Both the position numbers and the translations under genes were made by a program. From the NCBI GenBank assembly GCA_963722795.1, contig CAVROD010000004.1, positions 203,443 to 267,442 of the forward strand: a stretch of DNA of 64,000 nucleotides. The letters run 5' to 3'. Below the pieces are notes generated by a model, which saw only the letters and a list, made by a program, of their open reading frames with translations, did no database searches and had not been told where the DNA came from. Each line of letters starts with the position of its first letter. Position 1 is the first letter of the stretch. This document shows, one piece after another, positions 6,766 to 24,533 of this stretch. This DNA comes from an uncultured Actinomycetes bacterium (GTDB taxonomy: Bacteria; Actinomycetota; UBA4738; HRBIN12).

Positions 6766-6813
6766 TCGCGTGATCGCGTGACCGCGTGATCGCGCAGTCG
6801 CGCCGTCGCCCCG

Positions 6814-7523: not shown

Positions 7524-8126
7524 GGCGCTCCAAGTCGGTCGGGAGATCTTCGGTTTCGAGCTCGGTGCGGTCGAGCGCTCGGCGCAACTTGCGCATCGCC
7601 GCGAGGGTCCTCGTCTTCACGGTGCCGACCGGGATCGCGATCTCCTCGGCGATCTGCACCTGGGTCTTCCCGCCGTAATACGCCATCTCGAGCACCTGTC
7701 GTTGTTCGGGCGGAAGGGTGTCGAGCGCCGCCCGGACCTCGATGCGACGCTCGGCCAGGTCGGCCGCGTCGGTGACACCCTCCGCTGGGTCTTCGACGGC
7801 CACCGGCTCGAGGTTCGAGGCCCGCTCCTGCCGGGCTCTGATGCGCTCCTCGCGCCGGACGGTGTCGACGGCGCGATGGTGCACGAGCGAGAGGAAGAAC
7901 GTGCGGAAGGCGCCGCGAGCGGGGTCGAACGCTTCCGGGGCGCGCCACACGGCCAGGAACGCGTCATGCACGACGTCCTGGGCGAGCACCTGCTGGCCCG
8001 TGATGCGATATGCCAGGCCGTATGCCAACGCGGAGTACCTGCGGTACAGGTCATCGAAGGCGCCGCGATCGCCCGCCGACAGGCTGCGGTGCAACTCCAG
8101 GTCGTCGCGCTCGCCCTCGCGCATGC
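7519..8126 (-). CDS. sigK: ECF (sigma-70 family) RNA polymerase sigma factor, SigK-like
   Basis: Region-2 motifs (DDLYRRYSALAYGLAYRITGQQVLAQDVVHDAFLAVW) and a region-4 HTH (LPPEQRQVLEMAYYGGKTQVQIAEEIAIPVGTVKTRT). Start taken at MREGERDDLE (ATG ~8126). Co-transcribed with the anti-sigma gene. Confidence 0.85.
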
Positions 8127-8147
8127 GCCGTATCCTCCCAGACACCG

Positions 8148-8417
8148 ATGCGCCCCCCCGACCGAGCCGGCGACCCCGCCCCACAGCACGTGGTGTTGTA
8201 CACCCGCCCGGGGTGTCACCTCTGCGACGACGCCCGGGCGGTGCTGCGCCAAGTTCGCGCGAGCGTGCCGTTCGAGCTGCACGAGGTGGACATCGAGACC
8301 TCCGACACCCTGGTGGGCGAATACGGCCTGCGCATCCCGGTGGTCGTCATCGACGGCCGGGAAGCATTCGAATACACGGTCGATCCCGTCGAACTCGAGT
8401 CGACGCTTCGTCGATGA
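8148..8417 (+). CDS. glutaredoxin-family protein (mycoredoxin/NrdH-like, CxxC)
   Basis: VVLYTRPGCHLCDDARAVL redox motif and IPVVVIDGRE follow a thioredoxin-fold pattern. The gene is divergent from sigK. The N-terminal extension in ORF 8010..8417 is spurious; ATG at 8148 precedes a C7 homopolymer. Confidence 0.75.
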   Translation: MRPPDRAGDPAPQHVVLYTRPGCHLCDDARAVLRQVRASVPFELHEVDIETSDTLVGEYGLRIPVVVIDGREAFEYTVDPVELESTLRR

Positions 8418-8503
8418 ACTGCCGCTTGGCCCACCCCGCTTGTGAGTTTGTGAACGCTGCCATCACGGCGCTAGTCTGAAGCCATGCAGCGGAGCGCTTC
8501 CCC

Positions 8504-9202
8504 GTGGTGAGGGATCGGACGATCCCCGAGGCCACGGTGGGGCGGCTGCCTGTCTACCTGCGCGCACTCGTCGATCTCGCGGAAGCCGGCGCCGGCACGG
8601 TCTCGAGCGACGAGCTCGCCGAGGCGGCGGGCGTGAACTCCGCGAAGGTGCGCAAGGATCTCTCGCACCTCGGGTCCTACGGCACGCGGGGCGTCGGCTA
8701 CGACGTCGCCTACCTCATCCACCAGATCCGCCGCGAGCTGGGGCTCACCCAGCACTGGGCGATCGCGATCGTGGGCGTCGGCAACCTCGGCCAGGCCCTG
8801 GCGAACTACGGTGGGTTCGCCGAGCGCGGCTTCCGGGTCGCGGCCCTCGTCGACGCCGACACCGCACGGATGGGCGAGCGCATCGGCGACCTCGAGGTGC
8901 GCCACGTCGACGACCTGCCGGCGATCGTGTCGGAGCTCGACGTGGCCATCGGCGTGATCGCCACGCCAGCCGGGGCCGCGCAGGAGGTGGCGGATCGGCT
9001 CGTCGACGCCGGGGTGCGGTCGATCCTGAACTTCGCGCCGGCGATGATCGCGGTGCCCCACGGGGTGTCGGTGCGCAAGGTCGACCTAGCGGTGGAGCTC
9101 CAGATCCTGGCGTTCTACGAGCAACGGAAGGCGACGCTCGCCGACCTGAAGCGCCGGGGCCGGGCGGTCGCCGACCTGGGCCCGGCTACTTCGAGATCGT
9201 GA
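8504..9202 (+). CDS. rex: redox-sensing transcriptional repressor Rex
   Basis: N-terminal winged helix (RLPVYLRALVDLAEAG...VSSDELA) plus Rossmann NADH-binding motif IAIVGVGNLGQALANY. Length 232 aa. Confidence 0.9.
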   Translation: MVRDRTIPEATVGRLPVYLRALVDLAEAGAGTVSSDELAEAAGVNSAKVRKDLSHLGSYGTRGVGYDVAYLIHQIRRELGLTQHWAIAIVGVGNLGQALANYGGFAERGFRVAALVDADTARMGERIGDLEVRHVDDLPAIVSELDVAIGVIATPAGAAQEVADRLVDAGVRSILNFAPAMIAVPHGVSVRKVDLAVELQILAFYEQRKATLADLKRRGRAVADLGPATSRS

Positions 9203-9299
9203 CCCAGAGGGCGGCGAAGACCGCGAGGATCATGATGCCCATCAGGATGAACTGCACGCTTCCCTGTTCGAGGAAGGGGAGCTCGAGGTTGGCGATCAT
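9186..9299 (-). CDS. putative small membrane protein (37 aa), last gene of the qcr-like operon; overlaps the rex 3' end
   Basis: ATG at 9299, translating to MIANLELPFLEQGSVQFILMGIMILAVFAALWVTISK with a TAG stop. One TM helix. It lies 22 nt downstream of the preceding membrane-protein gene on the same strand. Confidence 0.35.
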   Translation of the reverse strand: MIANLELPFLEQGSVQFILMGIMILAVFAALWVTISK

Positions 9300-9320
9300 C
9301 GGTTCGTCCTCTCTCGCGGG

Positions 9321-10052
9321 CTAGGCCGGGCCGTACCAGGCGGGTGCGCCGCCCCCGGTCAGGAACTCCTTGCGCTTCTTCTCGGCCCGGTCCATCAGCG
9401 GCAGGAACACCGCGAACGCCACGATCGAGCCGGCCAGGAACATGTACGAGTAGCGGGGCACGCTGCCCCCGTCGTAGTACAGCGAGACGGTCCACAGCGG
9501 TCCGCCGCCCGTGAAGTGCGATTGCACGACGGCGAGCTTCGTGCCGTCGTCCTCGGCGAAGCGGATCGAGTCGATCGCGAACTGGCTGCCGAGCACCGCG
9601 GTGGGGTCGGTCTCGGCGAGCCCCAGCTCTTCGTTCGTCTGCTCGGCGAGGAAGGCCGTCACGGCGCCGCTCGCGCTCTGCACGTCGGCGTTCGCGGCCT
9701 CGGGCACCACCCACGGGTCTCCCGGCCAGGTCCCGAAGGCGGCGTACTCGGTGGAGGTCTCGTCGACCGCGGCCTCGAGCGCCACCCAGGCCGGCTCGGC
9801 TCCGCGCGGTCCGAGGTTGGTCGGCGTCTCGAGGCCCTGCGACCAGAAGCCGAACAGCCAGAGCGCGGACTGCAGGACCATCCAGCCCGAGAACGACACC
9901 GCGAGCACCAGGAACCCGAGCCACCGGCCGAAGATGGCCGTGAGCAGCAGGTACGTGCTGAAGATGAACAGCGTGAAGCCCATGATCGTGACGCCGGCGC
10001 CCTTCCACAGGGTGTCGCACTCGATCGCGAAGCCGAGGCAGCTGTGCTCCAT
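9321..10052 (-). CDS. hypothetical polytopic membrane protein co-operonic with the cytochrome c / Rieske / cytochrome b genes
   Basis: Intact 243-aa ORF with four hydrophobic helices (three N-terminal, one C-terminal) around a ~120-aa hydrophilic domain. Its ATG directly abuts the stop of the upstream cytochrome c gene. Confidence 0.6.
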   Translation of the reverse strand: MEHSCLGFAIECDTLWKGAGVTIMGFTLFIFSTYLLLTAIFGRWLGFLVLAVSFSGWMVLQSALWLFGFWSQGLETPTNLGPRGAEPAWVALEAAVDETSTEYAAFGTWPGDPWVVPEAANADVQSASGAVTAFLAEQTNEELGLAETDPTAVLGSQFAIDSIRFAEDDGTKLAVVQSHFTGGGPLWTVSLYYDGGSVPRYSYMFLAGSIVAFAVFLPLMDRAEKKRKEFLTGGGAPAWYGPA

Positions 10053-10781
10053 CTACGGATCCCTCGGGTTGAGGCCGGGTCCGCCGTTCTCGGGCAGGTT
10101 CTCTTCGAGCGCCCGGGCCGAGGCCTCCTCGTTCAGGCAGACGTTGTCCTCGAACGGCACGTTCTCCGAGCTCATCTCGACGAGGTAGACGACCAGGTCG
10201 TTGATCTGCTGGTCGTTCAGCGCGCCCTGATAGCGGATGCTCCACGACGGCATCGCGCCCCGGCCCTCCTCGAGTCACCTGGTAGATGTCGTCCTGGGAG
10301 AAGATCGCTGGGTGGCGGGGTGCCGAACGGCCCGCGCACAGAGTTCGTGAGGTCCGGCGGGTACGCGAACGCGTCTCCCGCCTGGATCACGCCACCGCGA
10401 AGCTCCGGTCCGTGGCAGCGGACGCAGCCGACGCCGAGCTGGTTCTCCTCGGAGAAGGGCTGCACGGCGAGCTCGCCGCGGTCGTAGGCGAGCGTGAGCA
10501 GCTCGTCCTCCTGACGCAGGTTCTCCGAGGGCTCGCGCAGCCAGTTGTAGGGGATGAAGACCACGAAGAAGGCGACGAGCACGCACGCCCCAGCCCTGCA
10601 GCTTCTGCAGCAGCGGGGTCTCGAGGGCGGCGTCGCTCGGGCCCGGTCGCATGCCACGCGGGATGTCGAGCGGCTGCTCCTGCTGGCGGCTGCGCAGGAA
10701 CAACGCGGCGCCGGCCGCGACCACGAAGATCGCGCCGAGCACGAGCAGGACGATGCCTGCGGTGTTCGTGGCGGCGAGCAT
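10053..10781 (-). CDS. membrane-anchored monohaem c-type cytochrome (electron acceptor of the Rieske/cyt b complex), ~3 frame switches
   Basis: Assembled across three frames: two N-terminal TM helices (IVLLVLGAIFVVAAGAALFL, VLVAFFVVFIPYNW), haem motif CVRCHGP, a Met-ligand region (GGPGRD.MPSW) and the class-I C-terminus QINDLVVYLVEM. Confidence 0.7.
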
Positions 10782-10799
10782 CTCCGTGGCCGTTCCTCT

Positions 10800-11520
10800 C
10801 TATCCGGTCGCCACGCAGAAGGGGCCCTGCGGTGGCTGGTCGATCGTGTCGGCGCCGCGCGGGGGCCCGAGGATCACCTCGGACGTGTCGACGACGACGT
10901 TGCCGTCGGTGATCTCGAGCTTGAACCGGTCCATGCCGCGCAGGCGCCGGGCCGAGCTTGTACTCCCCGGCGCCGTTGTACTTCGAGCCGTGGCACGGGC
11001 ACTCGAACCACTTCGACGACCCGCAGTACGGGCACCCGGCAGCCGAGGTGCACGCATCGCTGGTACAGGGGCATGATGCCCTCGGCCGCGACGCCCTCGG
11101 TCACGTAGTCGACGTCACCGCTCGGTGAGCCGTTGTACCCGACGACGTAGAAGCGGCCGGTGCCGTTGTAGGCCGCGCCCGCCGGACTCGTCGATCTCGG
11201 CCTTGATGTCGGCGACGTTGCCGGCGTCGACGAGCGAGCCGAACCCGCCCTTGAGGTTCGGCCACAGGAACGCGATCGTGGCGCCGCCGAACTGGGCGCC
11301 GAAGACGACAGCGACGTCAGCAGGGAGCGGCGGAAGAAGTCGCGCCGCGAGAGCGACTTGACCGGCTTGCCGGCGACCTCGATCTGCCCGTCGGCGGTCT
11401 CGCGCGGCGGCGCGATTGCGCGCGCACGAACGACAGGCCGAACACGATCGCGAAGATGTCGAGCACCACGAACGCGAGGATCGCGGCGACGAGCGGCGTG
11501 GAGACAGCGCGAGCGTGCTC
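10800..11520 (-). CDS. qcrA: Rieske [2Fe-2S] iron-sulfur subunit (QcrA/PetC-like), at least 4 frame switches
   Basis: Pieces in different frames: TM LVAAILAFVVLDIFAIVFGL; Tat-like SLSRRDFFRRSLLT; FGAQFGGATIAFLWPNLKGGFGSLVDAG; box I CVHLGC; box II CPCHGSKYN; C-terminus GMDRFKLEITDGNVVVDTSEVILGPPRG. TAG stop at 10800. Confidence 0.75.
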
Positions 11521-12360
11521 ACAGCTCGAAGAACACCCCCTGCGCCCACGGCCAGACCCAGTTGTAGCCGGGGCCGCGGAAGAACGAGCCGATGATCGTG
11601 AGGACGCCGCCGAACATGAACAGGATCGTGAACAGCGTGATCGCGATCTTGCGGTCGCCCGGCTTGTTGCTCGGGTTGCGGTCGACGTAGGGCACCGCCG
11701 CGAGCCCGACCAGGATGAACGTGGGGATCGTGATGCCGGCCACCATCGGGTGGAAGTAGCGCAGCAGCTCCTGCAGGCCGAGGAAGTACCACGGCGCCTT
11801 CGACGGGTTCGGCGTGAGGTTGGGGTTCGCGAGCTCGCGCAGCGGCGCGTTGATGAACGTGGAGAACAGCGTCAGGCCCGCGAGCAGGATGAACATCGCG
11901 ACGAACTCTTCGATCAGCAGGTGCGGCCAGACGTTCACGCGGTCGCCCTGCTCGCGCTCGACCCGCTGGATGCCCTCGGGCGGCACCAGCGCCAGCAGGC
12001 GGTGCTTGTCGTCGGCGCCCTTCTTCGGCGTCGGGCACGTTGCCCGTGGGCAGCGGGGCTTCGCGCATCGGGGTCGTGACCGACGCGGCCACGGCCACGG
12101 CGGCAGGTGCCGCGGCACCGGCGGCGGCGGCAGCGGGTGCGGCAGCGGCCGCGCGCGCCGGGCGCGGCCGCCGCGGCCGCGGCACCGGCGCCGGCGGCCT
12201 CGTGCTTCGCTGCCTCCTCGGGGTTGGCGGCGCGGAATGCGCGCACGGCCGGCGACCGAGCGCGACCCTCGGCCACGCGGCGGTCGGTGCCCTTGGCGAG
12301 CTCCGCCTCCAGCGTGGAGTCGAAGACCTCCTGGTCGAGCGGGGTGTCTTCCTTGGCCAT
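11519..12360 (-). CDS. cytochrome b6f-type subunit IV (PetD-like C-terminal half of cytochrome b), Ala-rich N-terminal extension, frame-disrupted
   Basis: Motifs [21 protein letters not shown] and [21 protein letters not shown] match subunit IV / cyt b C-terminal helices. The N-terminus [23 protein letters not shown] lies in another frame. Confidence 0.7.
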
Positions 12361-12377
12361 GTCTCTCCTTGGACTCC

Positions 12378-13150
12378 CTAGAGCGGTCCCGAGATGCCGC
12401 CGTCCTTGCGGATGCGCCAGAAGTGCACCGCGAGGAAGATCACCAGCACGAACGGCAGTGCGATCACATGCAGCGTGTACCAGCGGAGCAGGGTCTCGGG
12501 CCCGACCACGACGCCGCCGAGCAGCAGGAAGTTCGCCTGCTTCGCGATGAACGGCGAGTAGCCCGGCGAGCGACGTGCCCACGGTGACCGCCCAGATCGC
12601 GAGCTGGTCCCACGGCAGCAGGTAGCCGGTGAACGACAGGCCGAGCGTGAGGAACAGCAGGATCACGCCGACGACCCAGTTGAACTCGCGCGGCGGCTTG
12701 TAGGCGCCCGGTGTAGAACACGCGCGCCATGTGCAGCGTGACGCTGAAGACCATGAGGTGGGCGCCCCACCGGTGCAGGTTGCGCACCAGGTCGCCGAAG
12801 AACACCGACGTGCGGATGCTCTGCATGTCGGTGAAGGCCTGCGCGCCGCCGATGTCGGCCGTGGGCCGGTAGAAGAACATCAGGAAGATGCCGGTGATGG
12901 TGAGCAGGATGAACAGGAAGAACGACAGCCCGCCCAGGCAGAACGTGTAGGTCAGCTTCAGCCCGTGCCGCTTCACCTTCACCGGGTGCAGGTGGTAGAG
13001 CACGTTGTTCATCGTCGCGAGCGCGCGGTCGCGCGACGTGTCCTTGTAGCCCTTGCGGAAGATCGACCCCGGCCGGAAGATCGACTTCCAGACCTCGGTC
13101 TCCCTGATCCGGTCACCCAGGTCGCTCGGCGACGGAGGCTTCAGCTTCAC
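12378..13150 (-). CDS. qcrB: cytochrome b6-like (N-terminal cytochrome b, bis-haem), two single-base frame switches
   Basis: Conserved segments [86 protein letters not shown] and [21 protein letters not shown]. The protein stops after ~255 aa, so it is a split b6-type, not a full-length cyt b. Confidence 0.85.
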
Positions 13151-13174
13151 GTCTTCTCCCTCTCGCGTCGCGGC

Positions 13175-13580
13175 TCATCCGGCCTCGGCCTGCGAGGTCG
13201 GCACCTCGGCCATCGTGCGCGTGCCGCCCTTGGAACCCTCGGGCAGTCGCGCATAGTACAGGGTGTCGGTGGGGCAGCGGTCGACGCACACCGAGCATCG
13301 CGTGCAGGCGTTGTCGTCGACGACGAAGATCGGCGTTCGACGTTGTCGACCTCGTCGCCGACCGACGTCGATCGGCCGCGCCCTCGACGATGCCCGGCGA
13401 CATCATGTAGATGCAGTTCCAGGGGCAGACGTCCTCGCAGGCGCGGCACAGGATGCAGTTGTCGGGATCGAGCATCAGGTGCTTCGGCGACTTCACGCCC
13501 TGGGCGAGCCACGCCGGGTCGACGGCCTCCACGACGTAGTCCTCGTGGATGTCGACCTCGGTCTTCGTGTAGGCCATCGC
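13175..13580 (-). CDS. 2[4Fe-4S] ferredoxin-like protein co-operonic with cytochrome b6, one frame switch
   Basis: Starts MAYTKTEVDIHEDYVVEAV... First cluster motif CILCRACEDVCP, second CTRCSVCVDRCP after a frame switch near 13370. Its ATG is 10 nt downstream of the preceding gene's stop. Confidence 0.7.
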
Positions 13581-13590
13581 GCGCCCGATC

Positions 13591-14018
13591 CTACCGGTAT
13601 CCGCCGGTCGGACGGTTGTCGGATTGCCCGCGCAGCTTGCGGCGCCAGTTCTGCATGATCGCCCCGCCGACGAGCACGATGATGATCGGCCCGGTGCTGC
13701 AGGCCCATCGCGACCGCGTCGCGCACCTGCAGCAGCAGCTCGTCGTAGGCGGCCGGCTCGCCGCCCGGCAGCAACGTGGGCAGCTCTTCGAGCGCCGCTT
13801 CGATGTCGGTCGGGCCCTGCCAGCCGAACTTCTGCTCGCGTCAAGTAGAGCCAGAACGACGGGAGCACCGAGGTCGTGATCAGCAGGAAGAACACGAGCC
13901 CGAGCGAGAAGACGACCGCTGTGGTCCACGTCCACTCGAAGTCCTTGAGGAACGCCTCGACGCGTGCCCTTCGGGTCTGCGTGGCCGTGGCGGGCGTCGT
14001 GGTCTCGACCTGGCTCAT
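13591..14018 (-). CDS. hypothetical two-TM membrane protein, first gene of the qcr-like operon, two frame switches
   Basis: SD AGGAGCG then ATG at 14018. Starts MSQVETTTPATATQTRRARVEAFLKDFEWTWTTAVVFSLGLVFFLLITTSVLPSFWLYL... and ends in a second TM GPIIIVLVGGAIMQNWRRKLRG. Confidence 0.5.
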
Positions 14019-14126
14019 ACGCTCCTGTGTTCCTCGCGTGTCTCGTCGGGCGAGTCTGCCTGAGGCGGGGGGATTATAGACATGTGCCGCACGCGCTCGA
14101 CGACCGCCTTCCACGCTTCGCGATGC

Positions 14127-14144
14127 TCGTGAATCGTTTCACAA
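14127..14144. promoter_or_regulatory. Rex operator (ROP) candidate TCGTGAATCGTTTCACAA
   Basis: 17/18 match to the actinobacterial Rex consensus TTGTGAAnnnnTTCACAA. It sits in the divergent intergenic region between the qcr-like operon (start 14018, minus) and ccdA (14214, plus). Confidence 0.55.
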
Positions 14145-14213
14145 GCGCGTCCGTCTACTATCGCTCGGGTACGCCCTCGGTCCGCGCAAGACAACCGAGC
14201 TCGGAGCCGACCG

Positions 14214-14957
14214 TTGATCGCCGACATCGTGCAGACAGGACTCGCCTCGTGGTGGGCGCCCGCGCTCGCGTTCGCCGCCGGGCTCGTGTCCTGTCTCAGC
14301 CCGTGCGTGTGGCCCGCTGCTGCCCGGGCTACGTCTCGTTCGTCACCGGCGAGCGCATCGCGAGCGGCGACGACGGCGAGCGCCCGGCCGCTCGCGCCGA
14401 TGCTGCTGTTCATCGCCGGGTTCACGATCGTGTTCGTGCTGCTCGGCGCGTTCGCCTCGACCTTCGTGCAGATCTTCCGTGGCATCGACCGGCCAGCGGG
14501 TCGGCGGCGCGATCGTGATCGCGTTCGGCGTGCTGATGATCGGCTACGCGCTCGGCCGTGGGTCGCTCGCGCTGTACGCCGAGCGCCGGCCGTTCCTCGC
14601 CCGGGTGCGGCCCGGGCACGGTCGGCGCCGTGCCGCTCGGCATGGCGTTCGCCGCCGGGTGGACGCCCTGCATCGGGCCGGTGCTCGGGTCGATCCTCGT
14701 GATCGCCGCGACGGGCAGCACCGCTCGCGCCGTGCTGCTGCTCGTGAGCTACTCCGCGGGCCTCGGGGTGCCGTTCCTGCTCGTGGGTCTCGGGGTCACG
14801 CGGTTCATGGGAGCCTTCGAGTGGGTGAAGCGCCGCTACACGGCGATCGCCGTCGTGCTCGGGCGCGCTGATGATCGCCGTCGGCGTGCTGCTCTTCACG
14901 GGCGAGTTCACCCGGCTCGTCGCCCCGCTCGCCGAGCGGTTCACCCTGGGTATCTGA
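14214..14957 (+). CDS. ccdA: cytochrome c-type biogenesis protein CcdA (DsbD-family thiol-disulfide transporter), ~3 frame switches
   Basis: LSPCV(LPLLPGY)VSFVTG motif and a second TPCIGPVLGSIL motif with multiple TM helices. At the first disruption the sequence GTGTGGCCCGCTGCTGCCCGGGC is explained by extra C/G bases in C/G runs. Confidence 0.75.
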
Positions 14958-14975
14958 GGGGCGCCGCTAGGATCG

Positions 14976-16624
14976 GTGCTGGCCCCATGTCGTCTCCCCA
15001 GCGCCTCTCGATCGCGCCAGTCGGTCGCCCTCGTGTGGCGGACCCTGCGCTCGATGCGCACGGCGCTGATCCTGCTGCTGCTCATCGCGCTCGCCTCGGT
15101 CGCCGGGTCGCTGCTGCCCGCAGTGGCCCGAACACGCCCGGACCGCGTGCTGCAGTACCAGGTCGACGCACCCGTTCTGGGGCACGTTCTTCGACCGCGC
15201 CGGACTGTTCGACGTCTTCGGGTCCTGGTGGTTCGTGCTGCTCGCGACGCTGCTGTTCGTCTCGCTCGTCGCCTGCCTCGTGCCGCGCACCCGCGCGCTC
15301 TGGCGGGCGTTGCGCACGCCGCCGCGTGCAGGCTCGCGAGATCGACGCCTTCCCGCGCTACGCCGAGGTCGCGCGTCGCCGCGGGCGCCCGAGGCGGCCA
15401 TCGAGGCGGCTCGCGACGGGTGCTGCGCCGTCGGCGGTTCCGGGTGGCGCGCGACCCGGCCGGCCCGCCCTCGCCGCCGAGAAGGGCGTGGCCCGCGAGG
15501 TCGGCAGCCTCGCGTTCCACTGGGCGTTCATCCTGCTGCTCGCCGGCGTCGTCTATGGCAAGGGCACCGGGTTCAGCGGGCTCGTCGCGGTGGTCGAGGG
15601 CCAGACCTGGGTCGACGCCGAGGCGAACTACGACGGCACACTCCGAGCGGGCCGGTTCTTCGACGACTTCACCGGGGTCGGGCTGCGCTTGCGTGACTTC
15701 GGCAGCGAATTCGCGCACACCGGGCAGCCGATGGACTTCGTCTCCGAGGTCGACCTGCTCGACGCCCGACGGCTCGTCGCTGCGACAGGAGTCATCAGGG
15801 TGAACCATCCGGCGAAGATCGACGGCATCTGGATCTATCAGTCGAGCTTCGGGTGGGCGCCGCTCATCGAGGTGACGCTCGACGGCGAGGTCGTCTCGTC
15901 GGGACCCGTGGTCATGGATCGTGACGCCGCGCCCGAGGGGGTCGTCGAGTTCGCGATGCCGTGGCGCGGCGTCGTGAAGCTGCCGGGGGCCGGCGACCAG
16001 GGCCTCGACCGCGCGATCGAGCTCGAGCTCTGGCCCGACAGCACGGCACTCGCGAACCTGGTGCAAGGTGGCGAACCGCAGGCCATGCTTCGCGAGTTCG
16101 ATCCGGTCATCCGCTTCACGGTCTGGGAAGGCGTGCTCGGCGACCTCTCCACGAACCGCCTCGACACGACGACCCTCGAGGACGTCTCGAGCGGCATCGT
16201 CGGCGCCGGGCGCACCGCCGATCTCGCCGACGGCGGCGCCCTGCCCGAGGGCGGCACGGGATCGGGCTCGACGATCTCGTTCCCCGAGCTGCGGCAGTAC
16301 TCGGTGTTCCAGGTCGCGCGCGACCCCGGGGTGCCCCTGGTGCTGGCCGCGGCTATCCTCATCCTCGCGGGCCTGCTGCCCGCGCTGTACAGCTCGCGGC
16401 GCAAGGTCTGGGTGCGCGCCGACCCGGACGGCGACGGGGCGGTGCTGCGTGTCGGCGGGCTCGCGATGCAGCGCAAGCCGCAGTTCGAAGAGGAGTTCGC
16501 TCGGCTCGTCGACGCGCTCGCGTCGGCGGCCGGCAGCGCCCCGGCGCCCGGCCCGCCGACCGGGGCCGGTGACGACCCAGGGGCACAGGAACCAGGAGCG
16601 CAGGAAAGGGTGCCGACGCCGTGA
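14976..16624 (+). CDS. resB: cytochrome c biogenesis protein ResB/Ccs1, ~3 frame switches in the N-terminal third
   Basis: N-terminal TM RTALILLLLIALASVAGSLLP, FWGTFFDRAGLFDVFGSWWFVLL, and a large periplasmic domain (…GIWIYQSSFGWAPLIEVTLDGE…) with a C-terminal TM LVLAAAILILAGLL. Confidence 0.75.
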
Positions 16625-17593
16625 CCGACCTGCAGTGGGCCCGCGTCTCGAACGACGCGTTCAACGTCGCGCTGTTCGCCTACCTCGCCTCGATGCTCGG
16701 CTACTTCGTGTTCCTCGCCTTCAAGCGCGAAGGCGTCTGGCAGGTGTCGAGGGCGGTGGCGGTCGTGGGCGTGGCCGCGAACCTCGTGTCGATCGTGGCG
16801 CGCGGGCTCTCGGCCGACCGCGTGCCGTGGGGAAACATGTACGAGTACTCCTCGCTGCTGGCGATGCTCGTCGTGGTCGGCGCGCTCGTCGTGGTCGAGG
16901 GCGTGTACAAGGTGCGCTCGCTCACCGGCTTCGCCCTGATGTTCAGCGTGCTCACGATGGCGGTGGCCGTGTCGTTCCTCTACGTCGGCCCCGGACCGCT
17001 CGTGCCGGCGCTCAACTCGTACTGGATCAAGATCCACGTGCAGGCGGCGATCTGGGGTTCCTCGCTGTTCGCGCTCGGTGGCATCGCGACGATCGCCTAC
17101 CTCGTGGTGGACCGGTCGGAACAGCGACGGCTCGCGAGGCTCGGCTCGCACACGCCGCCGCCGATCATGGGCGGCTCGATCGACCTCGAGGCCGGCGCCC
17201 CTCGCCCCGACGCACCCGACGACCTGGTGCCCGACTCGGCCGAGGACGTCGCCACCCGGCCCTCGCTCGCGCCGCCTCGTGCCGTCGGCCGCCGGGCTCG
17301 ACCGACTCGCGTACCGCATCATCGCGCTCGCGTTCCCGATCTGGACGTTCGCGGTGATCGCCGGCGCGATCTGGGCGCAGGAAGCCTGGGGGCGCTACTG
17401 GGGCTGGGACCCGAAGGAGACGTGGTCGTTCATCACGTGGGTCATCTTCGCCGGGTACCTGCACGCGCGCGCCACGAGCGGGTGGAAGGGTCGCCGCGCC
17501 GCCGTCATCGCGCTCGTCGGCTTCGTCTCGCTGTTGATCACGTACTACGCCGTGAACCTCTGGATCGTGGGTCTGCACAGCTATGCGAAGTGA
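16621..17593 (+). CDS. resC: cytochrome c biogenesis protein CcsA/ResC (haem exporter), one frame switch near 17280
   Basis: WWD-domain C-terminus WAQEAWGRYWGWDPKETWSFITWVIFAGYLHAR. Start overlaps the resB stop (GTGA). Confidence 0.8.
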
Positions 17594-17706
17594 TGCGGCG
17601 ACGACCTCTGGATGCACGAGGCGTCGGTGATACAGTGCGCGCGTTCCGGCCGGGTCGGGGGCAGGCCGCGGACAGCCGAGCCGTCAGGTAAGGAGCGAGA
17701 GCGATC

Positions 17707-18804
17707 GTGCGGAAGAAGTCGCTGTGGACCCTCGGCCTGATCGCCGTGGGACTGCTGCTCGCGGCATGTTCTCCCGACGCCAGCCAGGACACCCTGCAGC
17801 CCGTCGGCGACGTCGCGAAGCAGCAGAAGGCCCTCTTCGTGCCGGTGTTCTGGGTGGCCGTCGGGGTCTTCGTGATCGTGCAGGGCGGCATCCTGTACAT
17901 CGCCATCCGCTACCGGCACCGCAAGGGCCGCGACCGCATGCCCAGGCAGACCCACGGCAACACCCGGCTCGAGATCGGCTGGACGATCGCCGCCGGCGGT
18001 GGTGCTCGCCGTCGTCATGGTGCCGACGGTGTCGCTGCTCTGGGACCTCGCCCGCCCGCCGGCCGACGGCGCCCTCAACATCACGGTCGAGGGCTACCAG
18101 TGGTGGTGGGGCTTCGCCTATCCCGACGACGACATGGTGACCGACTGGGACACGCCCCATCACGATCGCCGACACGATGGTGGTGCCCACCGGGCGCGAC
18201 GTCTACCTCTCGCTGGAGTCCCGTGGCGGCGGGGCGCAGGACGCGAACGGCGATCCGGACTTCCAGGTGATCCACTCGTTCTGGGTGCCCGAGCTGTTCG
18301 GCAAGCAGGACGTGATGCCGGGCCGGACGAACCACGATCCTGTTCAGCGTCGACGAGCCTGGCACCTACACCGGGCAGTGCGCGGAGTTCTGCGGGCTGC
18401 AGCACGGGCTGATGAAGCTCGAGGTCGTCGCGCTCGCGCCGACGGACTGGGAGGCCTGGGTCGCGAACCAGCAGACGCTGCCGCCGAGCCCGACCGACCC
18501 GCTGGCGAAGCAAGGGGAGGAGCTGTTCCTGAACCCGCTGAGCGACGGTCGCGGCCAGTGCACGGCGTGCCACGCCGTCGGCGACTCGCCGGGCGGCGCG
18601 GCCGCGCCCGAACCTGACGCACTTCGCCGACCCCGACCCACACGTGCTTCGCGGGGTGCAACTGGTCCACCGAGGACCGTGAGGCGCTCGCGGCCTGGCT
18701 CGAGAACCCCGACGCGGTCGAAGCTCGGCGCGAAGATGCCCGACTACGGCCTCACGCCCGAGGAGATCGATGCCCTCGTCGCCTACCTGTACAGCCTGAC
18801 GTGA
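17707..18804 (+). CDS. ctaC: cytochrome c oxidase subunit II with C-terminal cytochrome c domain (caa3-type), ~4 frame switches
   Basis: Lipoprotein-like signal LAACS, CuA motif HSFWVPELFGKQDVMPGRTN...CAEFCGLQHGLM, then a C-terminal CTACH haem-c motif and LTPEEIDALVAYLYSL. Confidence 0.85.
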
Positions 18805-18823
18805 TGGAGGCGATCACCGACCC

Positions 18824-20704
18824 ATGGCGAGCGTGAGCGTTCCGGCGAGCGGCCGGGGTCTGCTGCGGCGGCCCACGGCGATCACCGGCTTCTGGAGCTG
18901 GTTCACCACGGTGGACCACAAGAAGATCGGCATCATGTACGGCGTCACCGCCTTCGTGTTCTTCATCGTCGGGCGGTCTCGAGGCGCTGCTGATCCGGGC
19001 GCAGCTCGCGCAGCCCGACGGCACCCTGCTGAACGCCGACCAGTACAACCAGATCTTCACGATGCACGGCATCACGATGATCTTCCTGTTCGTGATGCCG
19101 ATGTCGGCGGCGTTCTTCAACTACATGATCCCGCTGATGATCGGGGCGCGCGACGTGGCGTTCCCGCGGCTCAACGCCTACAGCTTCTGGGTCTTCCTGC
19201 TTGGCGGTCTGTTCCTGTACTCGAGCTTCGTTCCTGGGCGGCGCGCCCAACGGCGGCTGGTTCGGCTACGCGCCGAACTCCACGACCGACCCGTCGATCG
19301 GCATGACCTTCTACGCGATCGGACTGCTGATCACGGGCATCGCCTCGACCGTCGGCGCGGTGAACCTGGCGGTCACGGTCGTGAACATGCGCGCGCCGGG
19401 CATGACGTTGTTCCGCATGCCGCCGTTCGTCTGGATGGGGCTCGTGGTGCAGTTCCTGCTGGTGTTCTCGCTGCCGATCATCACGGTGGCCCTGTTCCAG
19501 CTGCTGTTCGACCGGCGATGGGACACGGCGTTCTTCGATCCGACCCGTGGCGGGGAGCCGATCCTGTGGCAGCACCTGTTCTGGCTCTTCGGCCACCCCG
19601 AGGTCTACATCCTGATCCTGCCGGCCTTCGGCATCATCAGCGAGGTCCTGCCGGTCTTCAGCCGAAAGCCCCTGTTCGGCTACCAGTTCGTGGTCTTCTC
19701 GGGCATCGCGATCGGCTTCATCGGGTTCGGCGTGTGGGCCCACCACATGTTCGCCGCCGGACTGGGGCCGGTCGCCAACACCGCGTTCGGCATCTCGACC
19801 GCGATCATCGCGATCCCCACGGGCGTGAAGATCTTCAACTGGATGGGCACGATGTACGGAGGCGACATCCGGTTCGCGACGCCGATGCTCTTCTCGGTCG
19901 GCGCCGTCGCGATGTTCGTGATCGGTGGACTCTCGGGGGTCACGCACGCGATCGTGCCGAGCGACTACCAGCAGACCGACACCTACTACATCGTCGCGCA
20001 CTTCCATTACGTGATCTTCGGCGGTGCCGTCTTCGGCATCTTCGCCGGGCTGTTCTACTGGTGGCCGAAGGTGTTCGGGCGCAGCTTGGGCGAGGCGTCG
20101 GGCAAGGTGCAGTTCTGGCTCTTGCTCGTCGGGTTCAACCTCGCGTTCGGGCCGATGCACATCCTCGGCCTGCAGGGCATGATCCGACGCGAATACACCT
20201 ACCCCGAGTCGCTCGGCCTCACCTTCTGGAACCAGATCGCGACGGTCGGCGCGTTCCTGATCGCCGTCTCGGTGTTGATGTTCATCGTGAACGCCGTGCG
20301 CACGCAGCTCCGACAGCCCGCGGCGAGGTCGTCGAGGACCCATGGGACGCGCGCACCCTGGAGTGGATGACGTACGAGCCCGCCGCCGGTGCACAACTTC
20401 GACGAGATCCCGACCGTGCACTCCCTCGACGAGTTCTGGCACCGCAAGTACGTGGAGGACGAGCGCACCGGCACGCTCGTACCGGCGCAGGCGGGGGCCT
20501 CCGACCAGGACCCCGGTCATGCGTCCGGGCACGGCTCGATCCATCTGCCGAGCCCGTCGTACTGGCCGCTCGTGTCGGGCCTCGGCCTGCCGATCATCGG
20601 GCTACGGCGTGCTCTACTCCTGGTGGCTGATCGGGCTCGGCGCGCTCGTCGTCGCTGATCGGGTTCTACGGCTGGGCCCTCGAGCCATCGGTCGCGGAGG
20701 ACTA
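18824..20704 (+). CDS. ctaD: cytochrome c oxidase subunit I with C-terminal extension, ~4 frame switches
   Basis: Conserved segments GFWSWFTTVDHKKIGIMYG, MIFLFVMPMSAAFFNYMIPLMIGARDVAFPRLN, WQHLFWLFGHPEVYILILPAFGIISEV, GVWAHHMFAAG and YIVAHFHYVIFGG. Ends ...FYGWALEPSVAED. Confidence 0.85.
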
Positions 20705-20706
20705 GT

Positions 20707-21348
20707 CATGGCCGACCTCGCGATCACCCCCGGGCACGGCGCCGTCGAAGCGCACGACGAGCACGCGACCACCACGGGGCTGCCGAACACGAAGCTCGCG
20801 ATGTGGATGTTCCTCGCGTCGGAATGCATGTTGTTCGGCGCGCTGATCAGCACCTACGTGCTGTACCGCGGCGCCAGCCAGACGGGCCCGTACCCCGACG
20901 ACGTCTTCGACATCCCCTACACGTCGGTGTCGTCGTTCGTGCTGCTCGCGTCGTCGCTCACGATGGTGCTCGCGCTCGCTGCGGCGCAGAAGCGCGACGT
21001 CGCTGCGCATGCGCCTGTGGCTGCTCACCACCGCGCTGCTCGGCCTCACGTTCGTCGGCGGCCAGGTCTACGAGTTCACGACCTTCTACGACGAGGGCCT
21101 GTCGATCTCGACGAACCTGTTCGGCACGACGTTCTACGTGCTCACCGGCTTCCACGGGGTGCACGTCACCGTCGGCATCCTGATGCTGCTCTCGCTCGTC
21201 GGCTTCTCGACCGCCGACCGGCTGCCCGACGACGCCGCGTTCCCGGTCGAGATGGTCGGGCTGTACTGGCACTTCGTCGACATCGTGTGGATCGTCGATC
21301 TTCACGGTCGTGTACCTGATCCCGACCCCTTCCCCGGCCCCGGTCTAG
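20707..21348 (+). CDS. ctaE: cytochrome c oxidase subunit III, two frame switches
   Basis: Starts HTTGLPNTKLAMWMFLASECMLFGALISTYVLYRG, continues TTFYVLTGFHGVHVTVGILML and ends LYWHFVDIVWIVIFTVVYLIP. Confidence 0.8.
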
Positions 21349-21354
21349 GAGGCG

Positions 21355-21731
21355 ATGACGGTGTCCGAGATCGAATCGCGCTTCCAGGAGGAACTCGGCA
21401 CGCGCGACATGGCCGACCCCGGTGAGGCTCGCGCGCCTCACCACGAGCACCCGAGCGCCAAGGAGTACATCCGCATCGGCGTGATCCTCGCCGTGCTCAC
21501 CGCCCTCGAGGTCGCGACGTACTACGTCGACGTCGGTGGCGCGCTCGTGCCGACCCTGATCGGGCTCTCGGTCGTGAAGTTCGCGCTCGTCGTGATGTGG
21601 TTCATGCACCTGAAGTTCGACAGTCCGACGCTACGCGCGGTACTTCCTGATGGGCCTCGCCGGGGCGACCACGCTGTACCTCGTCGTACTGATCTCGTTC
21701 GGCGTCTTCAAGGTCGGAGTGAGGGAGCGTG
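21355..21731 (+). CDS. ctaF: cytochrome c oxidase subunit IV (prokaryotic caa3 CoxIV/CtaF-like), frame-disrupted; 3' end uncertain
   Basis: SD GGAGG then ATG. Central motif HPSAKEYIRIGVILAVLTALEVATYYV, then FALVVMWFMHLKFDS / RYFLMGLAGATTLYLVVLISFGVF in a second frame. Confidence 0.6.
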
Positions 21732-22561
21732 CAGCTTCCCGACTGGCATCTGCACCCCGACGTGTGGCTGCTGTTCGGCTCGATCGTCGCCGCGTACCTG
21801 ATCGCCGCGCGCCGGCACCTCGACGACGACAGGCGAGGCGACGTCGCGGCGCTCGAGGACCCTGTTCCTCACGGGCATGGGAGTGCTCTGGCTCGGCGCC
21901 GACTGGCCCGTGCACGACCTGGCCGAGGGCTACCTCTACTCCATGCACATGACCCAGCACCTGCTGTTCACGCTCGTCGCGGCCCCGCTGCTGATCGCGG
22001 GCATGCCGGCGTGGATGCTGCGCGTGCTGCTCGCGCCCGCCGCCCGTGCGCCGGGTGTTCCGGTTCGTGACGCGGCCGCTCGTGGCGCTCGTCGTCTTCA
22101 ACGGCGTGCTGCTCTTCACGCACTGGCCCGCGGTCGTGGAGGCATCGGTCGGCTCCGAACCGATCCACCTGTCGCTGCACGTGCTGATCGTCGCCTCGGC
22201 GCTCGTGATGTGGTGGCCCGTGATGTCGCCGCTGCCCGAGATGCCGTCGCTGTCGGCGCCCGGCCAGATGATCTACCTGTTCCTGCAGTCGCTCGCGCCC
22301 ACGATCCCGGCGTCGTTCCTGACGTTCGGACACACGCCGCTGTATCCGGTCTACGCGACGTTCCCGCGCATCTGGGGCATGTCGGCGCTCACCGACCAGC
22401 TCATCGCGGGCCTCATCATGAAGCTCGCGGGCGGGCTGTTGCTGTGGACCGTGATCGCGGTCATCTTCTTCCGCTGGTTCGAGCAGGAGCAGCGCGACGG
22501 GCTGGACCGGTCGGCCCACCAGAACCTGCACCGAGAGATCGGCGCGGAGCTGTCCCGATGA
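21729..22561 (+). CDS. ctaG: caa3-type cytochrome oxidase assembly factor CtaG-like polytopic membrane protein, two frame switches
   Basis: Seven predicted TM helices (LLFGSIVAAYLIAARRH, LFLTGMGVLWLGADWP, HMTQHLLFTLVAAPLLIAGMPAW, PLVALVVFNGVLLFTHWP, LHVLIVASALVMWWPV, IYLFLQSLAPTIPASFLTF, LIAGLIMKLAGGLLLWTVIAVIFF). Family call rests on position in ctaCDEF(G) and topology. Confidence 0.6.
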
Positions 22562-22613
22562 GGAGCGACCGAACGGATGAGTGCCGGATGCGTGCCAGAG
22601 ATGAGCGACCGAG

Positions 22614-23925
22614 ATGAGTGACAGCAAGAACCGGCAGAGCCTGCTGCTGCCGATCCTGATGCCGATCGCGGTGCTCGCCGTGATCGTGCTCGTGCTGTTC
22701 GGGTTCTCGCGCGTGTTGCTGGCGGTCTCGCACAACGCCGCCACCGTGGTCGCGCTCGTGGCGGCCGCCGGCATCGTCGTCGGTCGCCGCCTGGGTCGCC
22801 TCGCGCAAGCGCGTGACGGGCGGCACGCTCTTCTCGATGGTCGCCGCGATGGCGGGCATCGCGATGGTGGCCGGTGGGCTCGCCGTGGTCGCGGCGCCCC
22901 TGCATGCCGAGGAGGAAGTCGAGGAGCCGGGCGGGGTCGTCGTGGCGCTCGCGGCCCCCGAGGGCGCGGCGGCGTCGGGCTTCTCCACCGAAGCCCTCTC
23001 GGTGCCGAGCGACGAGCCGTTCACGATCGCCTTCGACAACCAGGACCCCGCGGTGCCCGCACAACGTCGTGGTGTTCGACGGGCCGGACGCCGAAGCGCC
23101 GGCCCTCGTCACGGGTGAGCTGATCACCGGTCCGGCCACGGCCGACTACCCGGTCGAGCCCGTGCCCGAGGGGGAGTACTTCTTCCACTGCGAGGTGCAT
23201 CCGACCACGATGGTCGGCACGATGACCGCTGCGCCTGGCGCCGGCGGCGGAGGCGGTGAGGAGGGGGTCACGGTCGTGGCCGCCGACCTCGCGTTCGACA
23301 CCGACACGATCGAGCTGCCCGTCGACGTCGAAACCACGATCACGATGGACAACCAGGACCCCGGCATCCAGCACAACATCGCGATCTACACCGACGACTC
23401 GCTCGGGGAGGAACTGTTCAAGGGGGAGCTCGCGACCGGGCCGGCGAGCGTGAACTACACCGTGCCGCCGCTGCCGGCCGGCGAGTACTACTTCCAGTGC
23501 GACGTGCATCCGAACATGGCGGGCACCGTCGTGGTGGCCGGCGATGAAGGTGGCGGTGGGGGCGAGGATCCCGGCGGCGGCGAGGATCCCGGCGGCGGTG
23601 AGGACCCGGCGGCGGCGAGGAGCCGCCCGACGGCGGGGGCACCGCGGCGGCCGCGGTCACGGCCGTCGGCCTCGCGTTCGAGCCCACGACGCTCACCTGG
23701 CCCTCGAACAGCGAGGTGACGCTCACCTTCGACAACCAGGACGACGCCGCCGTCAACGGCCAGCACAACGTGTCGATCTACGACGGCGACACGGCCCTGT
23801 TCCAGGGCGAGCTGGTCTCGGGGGTCGCCACGGTCGACTACACGATCCCGCCGATGGAACCCGGCACGTTCGAATTCCGATGCGACGTGCATCCCACGAT
23901 GGTCGGCACGGTCGAGGTCACCTGA
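22614..23925 (+). CDS. membrane-anchored protein with three tandem plastocyanin-like type-1 copper (cupredoxin) domains, ~3 frame switches
   Basis: N-terminal TM helices (LLLPILMPIAVLAVIVLVLFGF). Three repeats of the pattern FDNQD...HN...F.GEL..GP......P...GEY.F.C.VHP.M.GT (AVPHNVVVFDG/FHCEVHPTTMVGT; GIQHNIAIYTD/FQCDVHPNMAGT; GQHNVSIYDG/FRCDVHPTMVGT), separated by Gly-rich linkers GGGGGEEG and GGGGGEDPGGGEDPGGGEDP. Confidence 0.7.
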
Positions 23926-24533
23926 CGACCTCGCTCGAGACCCCGCCGAGCGCCGCCCCGGACCCCGACGCATCGCCGGCACCTCGCCGTCGCGGCCGCA
24001 CCGTCGTTCTCGTCGTCGTGGTGGCGCTCGCGGTCGCCGGCGCCGGCTGGCTGCTGCGACCGACGTCGGATCCGCGGGTCGACGGCGGCGTGGCTGAGAT
24101 CGACGAGCCGTTCCCGGGGTTGAACGGCGAAGCCGTCGTCGGGCCGCCGCTCGACACCGCCGCGCAGGAGTGGTCGGTGCTCGTGGTGAACGTGTGGGCC
24201 ACCTGGTGCGAGCCCTGTCGGCGCGAGCAGCCCGCCCTGCAGCGGGTGCAGGCGAGCTACGAGGACCGGGGCGTCGTCTTCGTCGGGGTCGACTACCGCG
24301 ACGACCGTGCGGCGGCCGAGCGGTGGATCGAGAGCTTCGGGGTGACGTACCCGAGCCTGTACGACCCCCAGGGGCGCACGGCGGCGACCCTCGGTTTCCC
24401 CTTCCTGCCCGACACCTACCTGGTCGATGCGACCGGCACGATGCGCTACGTCGTCTACGGCGAGACGAGCGCCGAGGAGCTCGCAGGCTTGCTCGACGGG
24501 CTGCTGGTCGCCGGTGGCCCGGACGCTTCTTAG
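23880..24533 (+). CDS. resA: thiol-disulfide oxidoreductase ResA/TlpA-like (thioredoxin fold, cytochrome c maturation)
   Basis: TM anchor TVVLVVVVALAVAGAGWLL, active-site WATWCEPCRRE and TlpA-like C-terminus. Intact frame. Start is uncertain (ATG 23880 overlaps the upstream gene; GTG alternatives downstream). Confidence 0.75.
   Translation: MRRASHDGRHGRGHLTTSLETPPSAAPDPDASPAPRRRGRTVVLVVVVALAVAGAGWLLRPTSDPRVDGGVAEIDEPFPGLNGEAVVGPPLDTAAQEWSVLVVNVWATWCEPCRREQPALQRVQASYEDRGVVFVGVDYRDDRAAAERWIESFGVTYPSLYDPQGRTAATLGFPFLPDTYLVDATGTMRYVVYGETSAEELAGLLDGLLVAGGPDAS

Follow-up and report, generated by a model that had tools for sequence, protein, structure and literature searches.

A membrane-anchored triple-cupredoxin protein predicted beside the caa3 oxidase genes of uncultured Actinomycetota

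What does a string of three copper domains do when its gene sits immediately behind the genes of a terminal oxidase? The question is raised by positions 22,614 to 23,925 of a 64,000-nucleotide (nt) stretch, here called the window (contig CAVROD010000004.1 of GenBank assembly GCA_963722795.1; G+C content ~70%), from an uncultured Actinomycetes bacterium, where an earlier note made from the letters alone had read a membrane-anchored, triple blue-copper protein at the end of a caa3 oxidase operon. We found that the gene encodes, once its frame is repaired, a single protein with a conserved three-helix anchor and three type-1 cupredoxin domains. At a probability of roughly 60%, we favour the reading that this protein is an extracytoplasmic, membrane-tethered electron-transfer partner of the caa3 oxidase encoded upstream, probably bound to the oxidase itself. 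Such a protein is unexpected for Actinomycetota, and what we say of its function past fold, ligands and linkage is what we infer.

The gene runs on the plus strand from an ATG at 22614 to a TGA at 23923-23925 and is spread over four overlapping open reading frame (ORF) pieces in three frames, as seen in the ORF list, in six-frame translation and by codon-level inspection. The pieces fuse into one protein of 436 amino acids (aa) when three 1-nt indels are repaired: an extra G at 22782/22783 (GTCGTCG[G]TCGCC), within the anchor-coding part; an extra C in the run at 23056-23058 (GTGCC[C]GCACAAC; V-P-H-N), just 5' of the codon for a copper-ligand His of domain 1; and a missing C in the run at 23605-23607 (GAGGACCC-GGCGGC), inside an 18-nt tandem repeat coding for (GGGEDP)n. 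A homologue search of 5.8 billion proteins (E <= 1e-5) gave 1,384 hits, the best 120 of which are mostly full-length, uninterrupted proteins of 416-474 aa with 43-92% identity to the repaired protein. End-to-end alignment with over 100 homologues, each intact and full-length, covers all three repaired junctions; it validates junctions 2 and 3 and identifies the lesion at junction 1 as a 1-nt insertion, which gives 436 aa. The gene is divided as follows.

22614..23925, plus strand: whole cupredoxin gene (ORF list, six-frame translation, end-to-end alignment with intact homologues)
22614..22899, plus strand: three-helix membrane anchor, aa 1-95 (AlphaFold2 helices, invariant columns in homologues)
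22930..23239, plus strand: cupredoxin domain 1, aa 106-208 (PF13473 at 36.2 bits, invariant ligands, predicted local distance difference test (pLDDT) >90)
23261..23539, plus strand: cupredoxin domain 2, aa 216-308 (PF13473 at 43.0 bits, PF00127 at 23.4 bits, amicyanin match, single-domain model)
23540..23640, plus strand: acidic, disordered Gly/Pro linker, (GGGEDP)x3-GGGEEPPDGGG (Tandem Repeats Finder array, pLDDT <50 at 312-340)
23641..23922, plus strand: cupredoxin domain 3, aa 343-436 (PF13473 at 42.6 bits, invariant ligands, pLDDT >90)

An alignment of 72 intact homologues served both as input to AlphaFold2 and for judging ligand invariance. The resulting model (mean pLDDT 85) has a predicted template-modelling score (pTM) of 0.42, a low value that indicates no fixed arrangement between the domains. 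Transmembrane helices are predicted at 11-35, 40-62 and 69-93, and the anchor has conserved motifs at R7, P13, P17, F31-S32-R33 and in a positively charged loop, S63-R-K-R. By the positive-inside rule, the positive charges of K5 and R7 at the N-terminal end and of the S-R-K-R loop connecting helices 2 and 3 would place the N-terminus inside, the C-terminus outside and the copper domains outside the cell. Three beta-sandwich domains follow, each with pLDDT >90, separated by disordered linkers of Gly, Asp, Glu and Pro at 95-105, 210-215 and 312-340 (~10, 8 and 35 residues) that vary in length among homologues; the tandem repeat array in the last linker spans 23561-23621 (period 18, 3.4 copies). 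The protein is free of His/Met-rich tracts.

The copper ligands are H149/C192/H195/M199 in domain 1 (loop C-E-V-H-P-T-T-M, C-x2-H-x3-M), H253/C295/H298/M301 in domain 2 (loop C-D-V-H-P-N-M, C-x2-H-x2-M) and H384/C423/H426/M429 in domain 3 (loop C-D-V-H-P-T-M, C-x2-H-x2-M). All 12 of these 12 ligands are invariant across the 72 homologues, in which the only invariant His residues are the six type-1 ligands and each domain holds one invariant Cys. The three domains are 43-49% identical to one another and each is 53-61% conserved among orthologues, which argues that the copies are old and individually maintained rather than products of recent amplification. The outline drawn in the earlier note, of a protein of about 436 aa with N-terminal transmembrane helices, three cupredoxin domains and Gly-rich and (GGGEDP)x3 linkers, is thus borne out by the repaired frame, Pfam, AlphaFold2, the disordered regions and the 18-nt repeat array. 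Its full type-1 ligand set likewise stands in every domain, but the plastocyanin-like spacing that it described does not: the loops are of the short amicyanin type (C-x2-H-x2/3-M), the plastocyanin loop being C-x2-H-x4-M.

Three frame disruptions within 1.3 kb might mark a decaying pseudogene, with real frameshifts and a protein no longer made in this organism, and the surroundings could in principle be read as lost aerobic respiration. When the clean proteins of a related locus, L082, were mapped onto the window, 13 of the 13 genes examined from cytB through the cupredoxin gene were found to switch frame one to three times each. Segmentation of the whole window by the phase of third-position G+C, however, showed that the switches form one contiguous block of 19 kb (~4,970-23,920) over unrelated genes, with a median frame segment of <200 nt, a frame change every ~100-600 nt and ~60 switches in total; the flanks, before ~4,970 and after ~23,920, have gene-length frame segments, and the seven genes from the downstream thioredoxin to nuoB have zero switches. 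All three lesions in the cupredoxin gene are 1-nt changes in G or C runs, the corrected frame holds no internal stop codons or larger deletions, and the corrected protein, with every ligand retained, shares 92% identity with an intact homologue. A sister assembly from a similar kind of data set (L081) is similarly fragmented, and most relatives are long-read soil metagenome-assembled genomes. The block therefore looks like an unpolished, error-rich stretch of a long-read assembly, with homopolymer error as the probable cause, and the three indels are most plausibly assembly noise, which makes decay of the gene very improbable. Programmed frameshifting was ruled out by the spread of the switches over 19 kb and all 13 genes. 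The two to three frame disruptions expected from the first reading are accordingly present, as three indels, but belong to the block and are not peculiar to this gene.

Each domain is a genuine type-1 cupredoxin, by its Greek-key beta-sandwich fold together with its ligand set, and each is predicted to bind one copper. The Pfam family Cupredoxin_1 (PF13473) matched three stretches of the protein (E 2.5e-32 for the whole). In the repeat-by-repeat hidden Markov model search proposed in the earlier note, all domains passed its cut-off of 27 bits (36.2, 43.0 and 42.6 bits for domains 1, 2 and 3), whereas Copper-bind (PF00127; cut-off 21.2) was passed by domain 2 (23.4) and failed by domains 1 (20.3) and 3 (16.9); the type-1 cupredoxin families tested belong to the Pfam clan CU_oxidase. 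Searched by itself, domain 2 matched amicyanin best among PDB sequences (E 2.8e-5), its four ligands aligning with H53/C92/H95/M98. Its single-domain AlphaFold2 model (pLDDT 98) retrieved amicyanin and auracyanin at the top of a Foldseek search, the other matches including an uncharacterised B. anthracis Cupredoxin_1 protein, Nitrosopumilus purple cupredoxin, rusticyanin, plastocyanin and AcoP; CuA and NosZ domains ranked below the type-1 carriers. Neither a copper ligand missing after frame correction nor a CuA- or NosZ-type fold, which the earlier note had named as grounds for abandoning its proposal, was found.

The whole-model Foldseek search against PDB put NirK and three-domain laccases first (E 1e-17 to 1e-11), as might be expected of a multicopper-oxidase- or nitrite-reductase-like enzyme, or an ancestral form of one, with packed domains and catalytic copper sites between them; two-domain proteins with type-1 sites only have been discussed as ancestral forms (PMC9038741). 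We find such an enzyme hardly credible here. The matches have a template-modelling (TM) score of ~0.2 and a root-mean-square deviation of 16-22 Å and arise only from both sides having several cupredoxin domains, a multi-domain matching artefact for which the single-domain search was used instead. The extra His of multicopper oxidases (HxH, type-2/type-3) or copper nitrite reductases (type-2) is not conserved in the 72 homologues, and because the six invariant His are all type-1 ligands and each domain has one invariant Cys, no catalytic type-2/type-3 or CuA site is possible. The domains are moreover separated by disordered linkers, with the low pTM noted above, and their number varies from one to three among relatives.

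Assignment to a narrower family was not obtained. The amicyanin equivalog TIGR02657 scored 46.1 bits against a cut-off of 110.2, and no mau genes lie in the conserved neighbourhood; the plastocyanin equivalog TIGR02656 scored 34.4 against 87.85, the loops being C-x2-H-x2/3-M. Membership of the CuA group, whose binuclear site has two Cys (C-x3-C) in the ligand loop, fails on the one Cys per domain, and Pfam gave no COX2 match. At E <= 0.1 the protein matched neither PCuAC/Sco Pfam models, its ligand set including Cys, nor sulfocyanin SoxE (PF06525), although SoxE matches, weak or precomputed, occur in some relatives (P0102; P0246 at 16.9 bits versus 21). A profile of the anchor found no match among PDB sequences even at E <= 10, which argues that the anchor is not a known oxidase subunit. 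Homologues carry only the database names 'plastocyanin' or 'cupredoxin domain-containing protein'. The domains, taken singly, are unexceptional representatives of the type-1 cupredoxin superfamily, and the whole protein fits no curated family; full-text literature searches found no description of tandem type-1 cupredoxins in actinobacterial cta operons, in agreement with the initial impression that the three-domain version could not be placed in a described family.

The genomic setting was compared by tblastn onto 82 loci and the window, with Pfam annotation of two related loci. The neighbouring genes that bear on the function of the protein are the following.

17707-18801, plus strand: ctaC with a C-terminal cytochrome c domain (CxxCH) (tblastn of L082 proteins, Pfam of orthologous loci)
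18824-20699, plus strand: ctaD (tblastn of L082 proteins, Pfam)
20756-21339, plus strand: ctaE (tblastn of L082 proteins, Pfam)
~21355-21712, plus strand: ctaF, COX4_pro type (tblastn of L082 proteins, Pfam)
~21729-22561, plus strand: Caa3_CtaG (tblastn of L082 proteins, Pfam)
23950..24533 (start approximate), plus strand: TlpA/ResA-like membrane-anchored thioredoxin, WCxxC, intact (tblastn; AhpC-TSA/Redoxin Pfam on the L082 orthologue)
9324..13985, minus strand: divergent complex III-type cluster (fragment translations, tblastn mapping, Pfam)

Each gene of the ctaC-D-E-F-ctaG set in the window (17707..22561) is broken by one to three frame switches, and the oxidase is of caa3 type because ctaC carries a cytochrome c domain. 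The complex III cluster encodes a membrane protein, a 2x[4Fe-4S] ferredoxin-like protein, a split cytochrome b6 and subunit IV, a Rieske protein (motifs CVHLGC and CPCHGS), a cytochrome c, in which one CVRCH motif was seen, and a further membrane protein. The gene therefore does adjoin ctaCDEFG and a b6-type complex, as the first reading of the sequence had it, on the evidence of tblastn, Pfam and fragment translations.

This arrangement is conserved. Related loci have, on the plus strand, the order ccdA-resB-resC, ctaC, ctaD, ctaE, ctaF (COX4_pro), Caa3_CtaG, cupredoxin gene and TlpA/ResA-like thioredoxin, and to one side, on the minus strand, the membrane protein, the 2x[4Fe-4S] protein, split cytochrome b6 and subunit IV, Rieske protein and cytochrome c; beyond the thioredoxin come a ctaA-ctaB fusion on the minus strand and then polyprenyl synthase, PNPOx, a geranylgeranyl-reductase-like flavoprotein and nuoA onwards. 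The order from ctaC (with its cytochrome c domain) through D, E, F and ctaG to the cupredoxin and tlpA genes is kept in ~55 of the 82 loci, from different species-level genomes and at identities down to ~35%, with ctaG directly upstream of the cupredoxin gene. As to the co-occurrence with cta and qcr operons that the earlier note had proposed checking, the oxidase and complex III genes are both among the conserved partners. In L082 the start of the cupredoxin gene overlaps the ctaG stop. All loci come from uncultured Actinomycetota/Actinomycetes genomes, mostly from soil; the lineage spreads over at least 178 species-level genomes, and look-ups of the homologue clusters gave metagenomic sources only, none cultured.

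The number of copper domains is less constant than the position of the gene. With the same anchor at the same operon position, domain-specific hidden Markov models counted three cupredoxins in ~20 loci, two in ~32 and one in three (L076, L077 and L079); the three-domain architecture first described thus holds for the gene in the window, but as one state of a series of one, two or three domains. The anchor, with a mean orthologue identity of 58%, is as highly conserved as the copper domains, and R7 and F31-S32-R33 are invariant, which suggests more than a passive tether would need and speaks against a generic transmembrane stretch. An anchor-only profile matched 504 proteins among 1.84 billion cluster representatives. 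Among the best 150 of these, complete proteins carry one to three type-1 sites, with two exceptions (P0231 and P0270), and the remainder are fragments or frameshifted products; an anchor bearing a cytochrome c would independently argue for a carrier role, but no CxxCH motif was found among the same best 150.

Seven representatives carry a module of ~130 aa ahead of the anchor, followed by a cupredoxin in five of the seven and not in P0231 and P0270. In P0243 this module matches Cyt_c_ox_IV (PF12270) at E 5e-5 and 23.7 bits, under the cut-off of 26.9, and a profile built from the module matches, over nearly full length, 'cytochrome c oxidase polypeptide 4' chains in the solved mycobacterial supercomplexes (E 2e-4 to 8e-4). 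Both of the fused genes that were located (P0243 and P0249) lie directly after COX1-COX3, the place expected for ctaF, with a thioredoxin downstream in one (L083) and SURF1 in the other. In the lineage of the window, a weak match to PF12270 falls on the extended COX1. Fusions of this Rosetta-stone type are suggestive, not strong, evidence that places the anchor-cupredoxin on the oxidase, because the subunit-IV similarity is weak and the sequences are hydrophobic. The two proteins in which no cupredoxin follows the subunit-IV-like module and anchor end otherwise: P0231 in a His/Asp-rich tail (HHGAEHGSETDDHSSDDHSSDDADHGDEADGDH) that could bind metal, and P0270 in a low-complexity tail rich in Gly, Thr, Asn and Pro.

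A second family of ~600-720 aa was seen to combine a ~430-aa N-terminal domain without Pfam match and two C-terminal type-1 cupredoxins closely resembling domains 1-3, mostly behind a lipobox-like N-terminus (...AAAC). Its genes (L042, L047-L049, L051-L055, L059, L066, L067, L069 and L070; for example L047:8708-10717) lie in different gene surroundings, in some cases within a genome that also has the anchor-cupredoxin.

How would such a protein serve the oxidase? In the mechanism that we favour, the conserved three-helix anchor would keep the protein in the membrane beside the oxidase, with the three type-1 copper domains held outside the cell on flexible Gly/Asp/Glu/Pro linkers. Each copper would alternate between Cu(I) and Cu(II), and the domains would accept electrons from a donor and hand them on to CtaC, at its cytochrome c domain or CuA. 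The likeliest donor would be the cytochrome c subunit of the adjacent Rieske/b6 complex; this route from complex III to complex IV, and with it the identities of donor and acceptor, is suggested by analogy and gene context. A soluble carrier would be lost from a monoderm cell, and tethering one to three carrier domains would keep their local concentration high; we speculate that multiple domains either raise this concentration or form a short relay. Association with the oxidase is argued indirectly, from the conserved operon position, from the conserved anchor and above all from the fusion of the anchor-cupredoxin to a subunit-IV-like module right after COX1-COX3. Replacement of the ctaC cytochrome c domain by the cupredoxin was also considered and left no such signal, the domain being present in 44 of the 44 loci that include ctaC.

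Several points weigh against an electron-transfer role on the oxidase. A cytochrome c is already fused to the oxidase and another is a subunit of complex III, and a direct supercomplex of oxidase and complex III could make an extra carrier unnecessary; other carriers elsewhere in the genome are possible, the view here being that of the window. The subunit-IV similarity is that of a hydrophobic sequence at 23.7 bits against 26.9 (E ~1e-4), and P0231 and P0270 bear the anchor without a cupredoxin, the tail of P0231 hinting at metal handling. The gene is frameshifted as it stands in the window, and its position between the Caa3_CtaG and TlpA-like thioredoxin genes fits assembly or copper handling equally well.

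This last point opens another explanation, in which the three Cys/His/Met sites would hold, supply or buffer copper for insertion into CuA/CuB together with CtaG and a TlpA-like thiol reductase, or would stabilise the oxidase, as first proposed for AcoP. Besides the position between the two genes, opposite the ctaA-ctaB fusion, it can draw on the thioredoxin that also follows the fused variant in L083, on the 20-kb neighbourhood, in which no Sco or PCuAC gene was seen, on the His/Asp-rich tail of the anchor-bearing P0231 and on AcoP, which maintains oxidase activity (PMC4059628). The sites themselves point elsewhere: they are canonical, rigid type-1 sites with an axial Met and a conserved His-Asn motif, in a protein without His/Met-rich tracts whose nearest structural relatives are all electron carriers. 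The known handling proteins look different, and no Pfam match to PCuAC or Sco was obtained at the threshold given above. Sco has a thioredoxin fold with CxxxC, and we know of no chaperone in which a tight-binding site has been amplified in tandem. Cupredoxin-fold PCuAC chaperones bind through an H(M)x10Mx21HxM motif of His and Met without Cys (PMC9145763). A copper-handling or assembly role is therefore unlikely in our judgement.

Alternatively, the protein could be an entry port for donors other than complex III, its one to three copper domains on long linkers, possibly reaching into the cell wall, collecting electrons from extracytoplasmic dehydrogenases or from extracellular Fe(II), Mn(II) or humics and delivering them to the oxidase, as rusticyanin and amicyanin do. 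The amicyanin-type loop and the best matches to amicyanin would fit, as would the disordered linkers of ~10, 8 and 35 residues with their variable length and the soil origin of the genomes, and the paralogous lipoprotein family with its ~430-aa domain and two very similar cupredoxins could be a partner enzyme. Yet no dehydrogenase or outer redox partner is conserved beside the gene, the only conserved partners being the oxidase, complex III and the cytochrome c maturation genes, and the estimate of reach is arithmetic on a disordered model, so that we give this role little weight.

A bolder version of the electron-transfer reading, which we hold to be doubtful, would make the anchor-cupredoxin a stoichiometric subunit of a b6c-caa3 respiratory supercomplex in an extensive uncultured lineage of actinobacteria. 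The one to three copper centres, on their flexible linkers, would then form a tunable 'copper wire', either between the complexes or tens of nanometres into the cell wall, where it would collect electrons from extracellular donors as a copper counterpart of monoderm multihaem cytochrome conduits.

The electron-transfer partner that we favour would be a variant of the oxidase-associated membrane cupredoxins, new in its three-helix anchor, its one to three tandem type-1 domains, its bacterial caa3 context and its fusion variants. The closest single-domain match is amicyanin of Paracoccus (TIGR02657; PDB 1AAC), with 27-33% identity, a TM score of 0.68-0.73, the short C-x2-H-x2-M loop and a P/Q-H-N first-ligand motif; amicyanin is, however, soluble, periplasmic, single-domain and dedicated to methylamine dehydrogenase, whereas the protein here strings three domains on a polytopic anchor and is encoded in a cta operon. 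Auracyanin of Chloroflexus and Roseiflexus is associated with Alternative Complex III. It resembles the domains studied here as a membrane-tethered type-1 carrier between a quinol oxidoreductase and terminal acceptors (TM score 0.83-0.85), but has a single domain, another loop and 20% identity.

In role, there are parallels among archaea. Sulfocyanin (SoxE, of the Sulfolobus SoxM complex) and halocyanin (Natronomonas) are membrane-bound type-1 carriers that replace cytochrome c between a bc-analogous complex and a haem-copper oxidase, halocyanin serving the N. pharaonis terminal oxidase as its substrate and sulfocyanin belonging to the SoxM supercomplex (PMC3062577). Both differ in being single-domain proteins with a single helix or lipid anchor, whereas the oxidase here is a bacterial caa3 enzyme with its own cytochrome c. 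In Ca. Angelarchaeales a two-domain protein with type-1 sites only follows coxB, and likewise has more than one type-1 centre, no type-2/type-3 sites and a place directly beside terminal oxidase genes (PMC9038741); it is archaeal and compact, with a NirK-like two-domain build as opposed to the flexible string described here, and its anchor differs. Among bacteria, the membrane-associated cupredoxin AcoP of Acidithiobacillus ferrooxidans (PDB 7Z3B/7Z3F), whose gene lies in oxidase clusters, is a binding partner of both cytochrome c and the oxidase (PMC4059628). Its fold matches (Foldseek ranks 37 and 39), but AcoP, at 16% identity, is a single-domain protein of an acidophilic proteobacterium with a green copper site and without the three-helix anchor. 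Membrane-bound 'Cup' cupredoxins have also been drawn in the oxidase clusters of iron oxidisers (PMC8239418).

A parallel in chain layout is that of Bacillus, a monoderm cell in which a split b6c complex, the tethered cytochromes c550/c551 (CccA/CccB) and a caa3 oxidase work together. CccA/CccB are tethered small carriers in the same place in a b6c-caa3 chain as we propose for the anchor-cupredoxin, but carry haem c instead of copper and share neither sequence nor fold relationship with it. Mycobacterium and Corynebacterium have a bcc-aa3 supercomplex in which a dihaem cytochrome c subunit replaces the mobile carrier, and to our knowledge textbook actinobacterial respiration gives copper no role in transfer between complexes. 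In the widespread uncultured soil lineage described here, the caa3 oxidase is instead accompanied by a split b6c complex like that of Bacillus and by an oxidase-linked protein predicted to carry up to three type-1 coppers. If the protein is indeed an inter-complex carrier or oxidase subunit, it would be the first bacterial multi-domain tethered blue-copper carrier, would extend the sulfocyanin/halocyanin principle from archaea to Actinomycetota, and would link respiration in abundant soil bacteria to the supply of copper; the series of one-, two- and three-domain forms would be a natural experiment on carrier copy number and respiratory flux. The hypothesis is directly testable, because the domains are small, confidently predicted and easy to express.

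Further features of the surrounding genes were noted. CtaD is long, at 621 aa in L082 (L082:6287-8152; window 18,824-20,699, plus strand), and the L082 protein has a weak Cyt_c_ox_IV (PF12270) match, presumably to a C-terminal extension, though a separate COX4_pro-type ctaF follows. In the complex III cluster, a 131-aa 2x[4Fe-4S] ferredoxin-like protein and a 145-aa membrane protein without Pfam family are encoded beside the split cytochrome b6 gene (window ~13,180-13,985, minus strand; L082:751-1596); this pair is kept in ~40 related loci, and such an iron-sulfur protein is unusual for bc/b6c operons. Divergent to the cta operon, and conserved across related loci, CtaA/COX15 (haem A synthase) and CtaB/UbiA (haem O synthase) are fused in one protein of ~612 aa (24,533-~26,350, minus strand). 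Two NADH-dehydrogenase-type clusters follow in tandem on the plus strand, at 29,177-~43,700 and 44,951-53,861, with a polyprenyl synthase gene (43,771-44,997) between them; the first begins nuoA-B-C-D-E-F-G, and eight ORFs of the second scanned with Pfam gave homologues of nuoA, C, H, I, L, M and N, with no E, F or G. An Rfam scan of the window returned no rRNA, its only match being a single tRNA at 58,486-58,567 on the plus strand.

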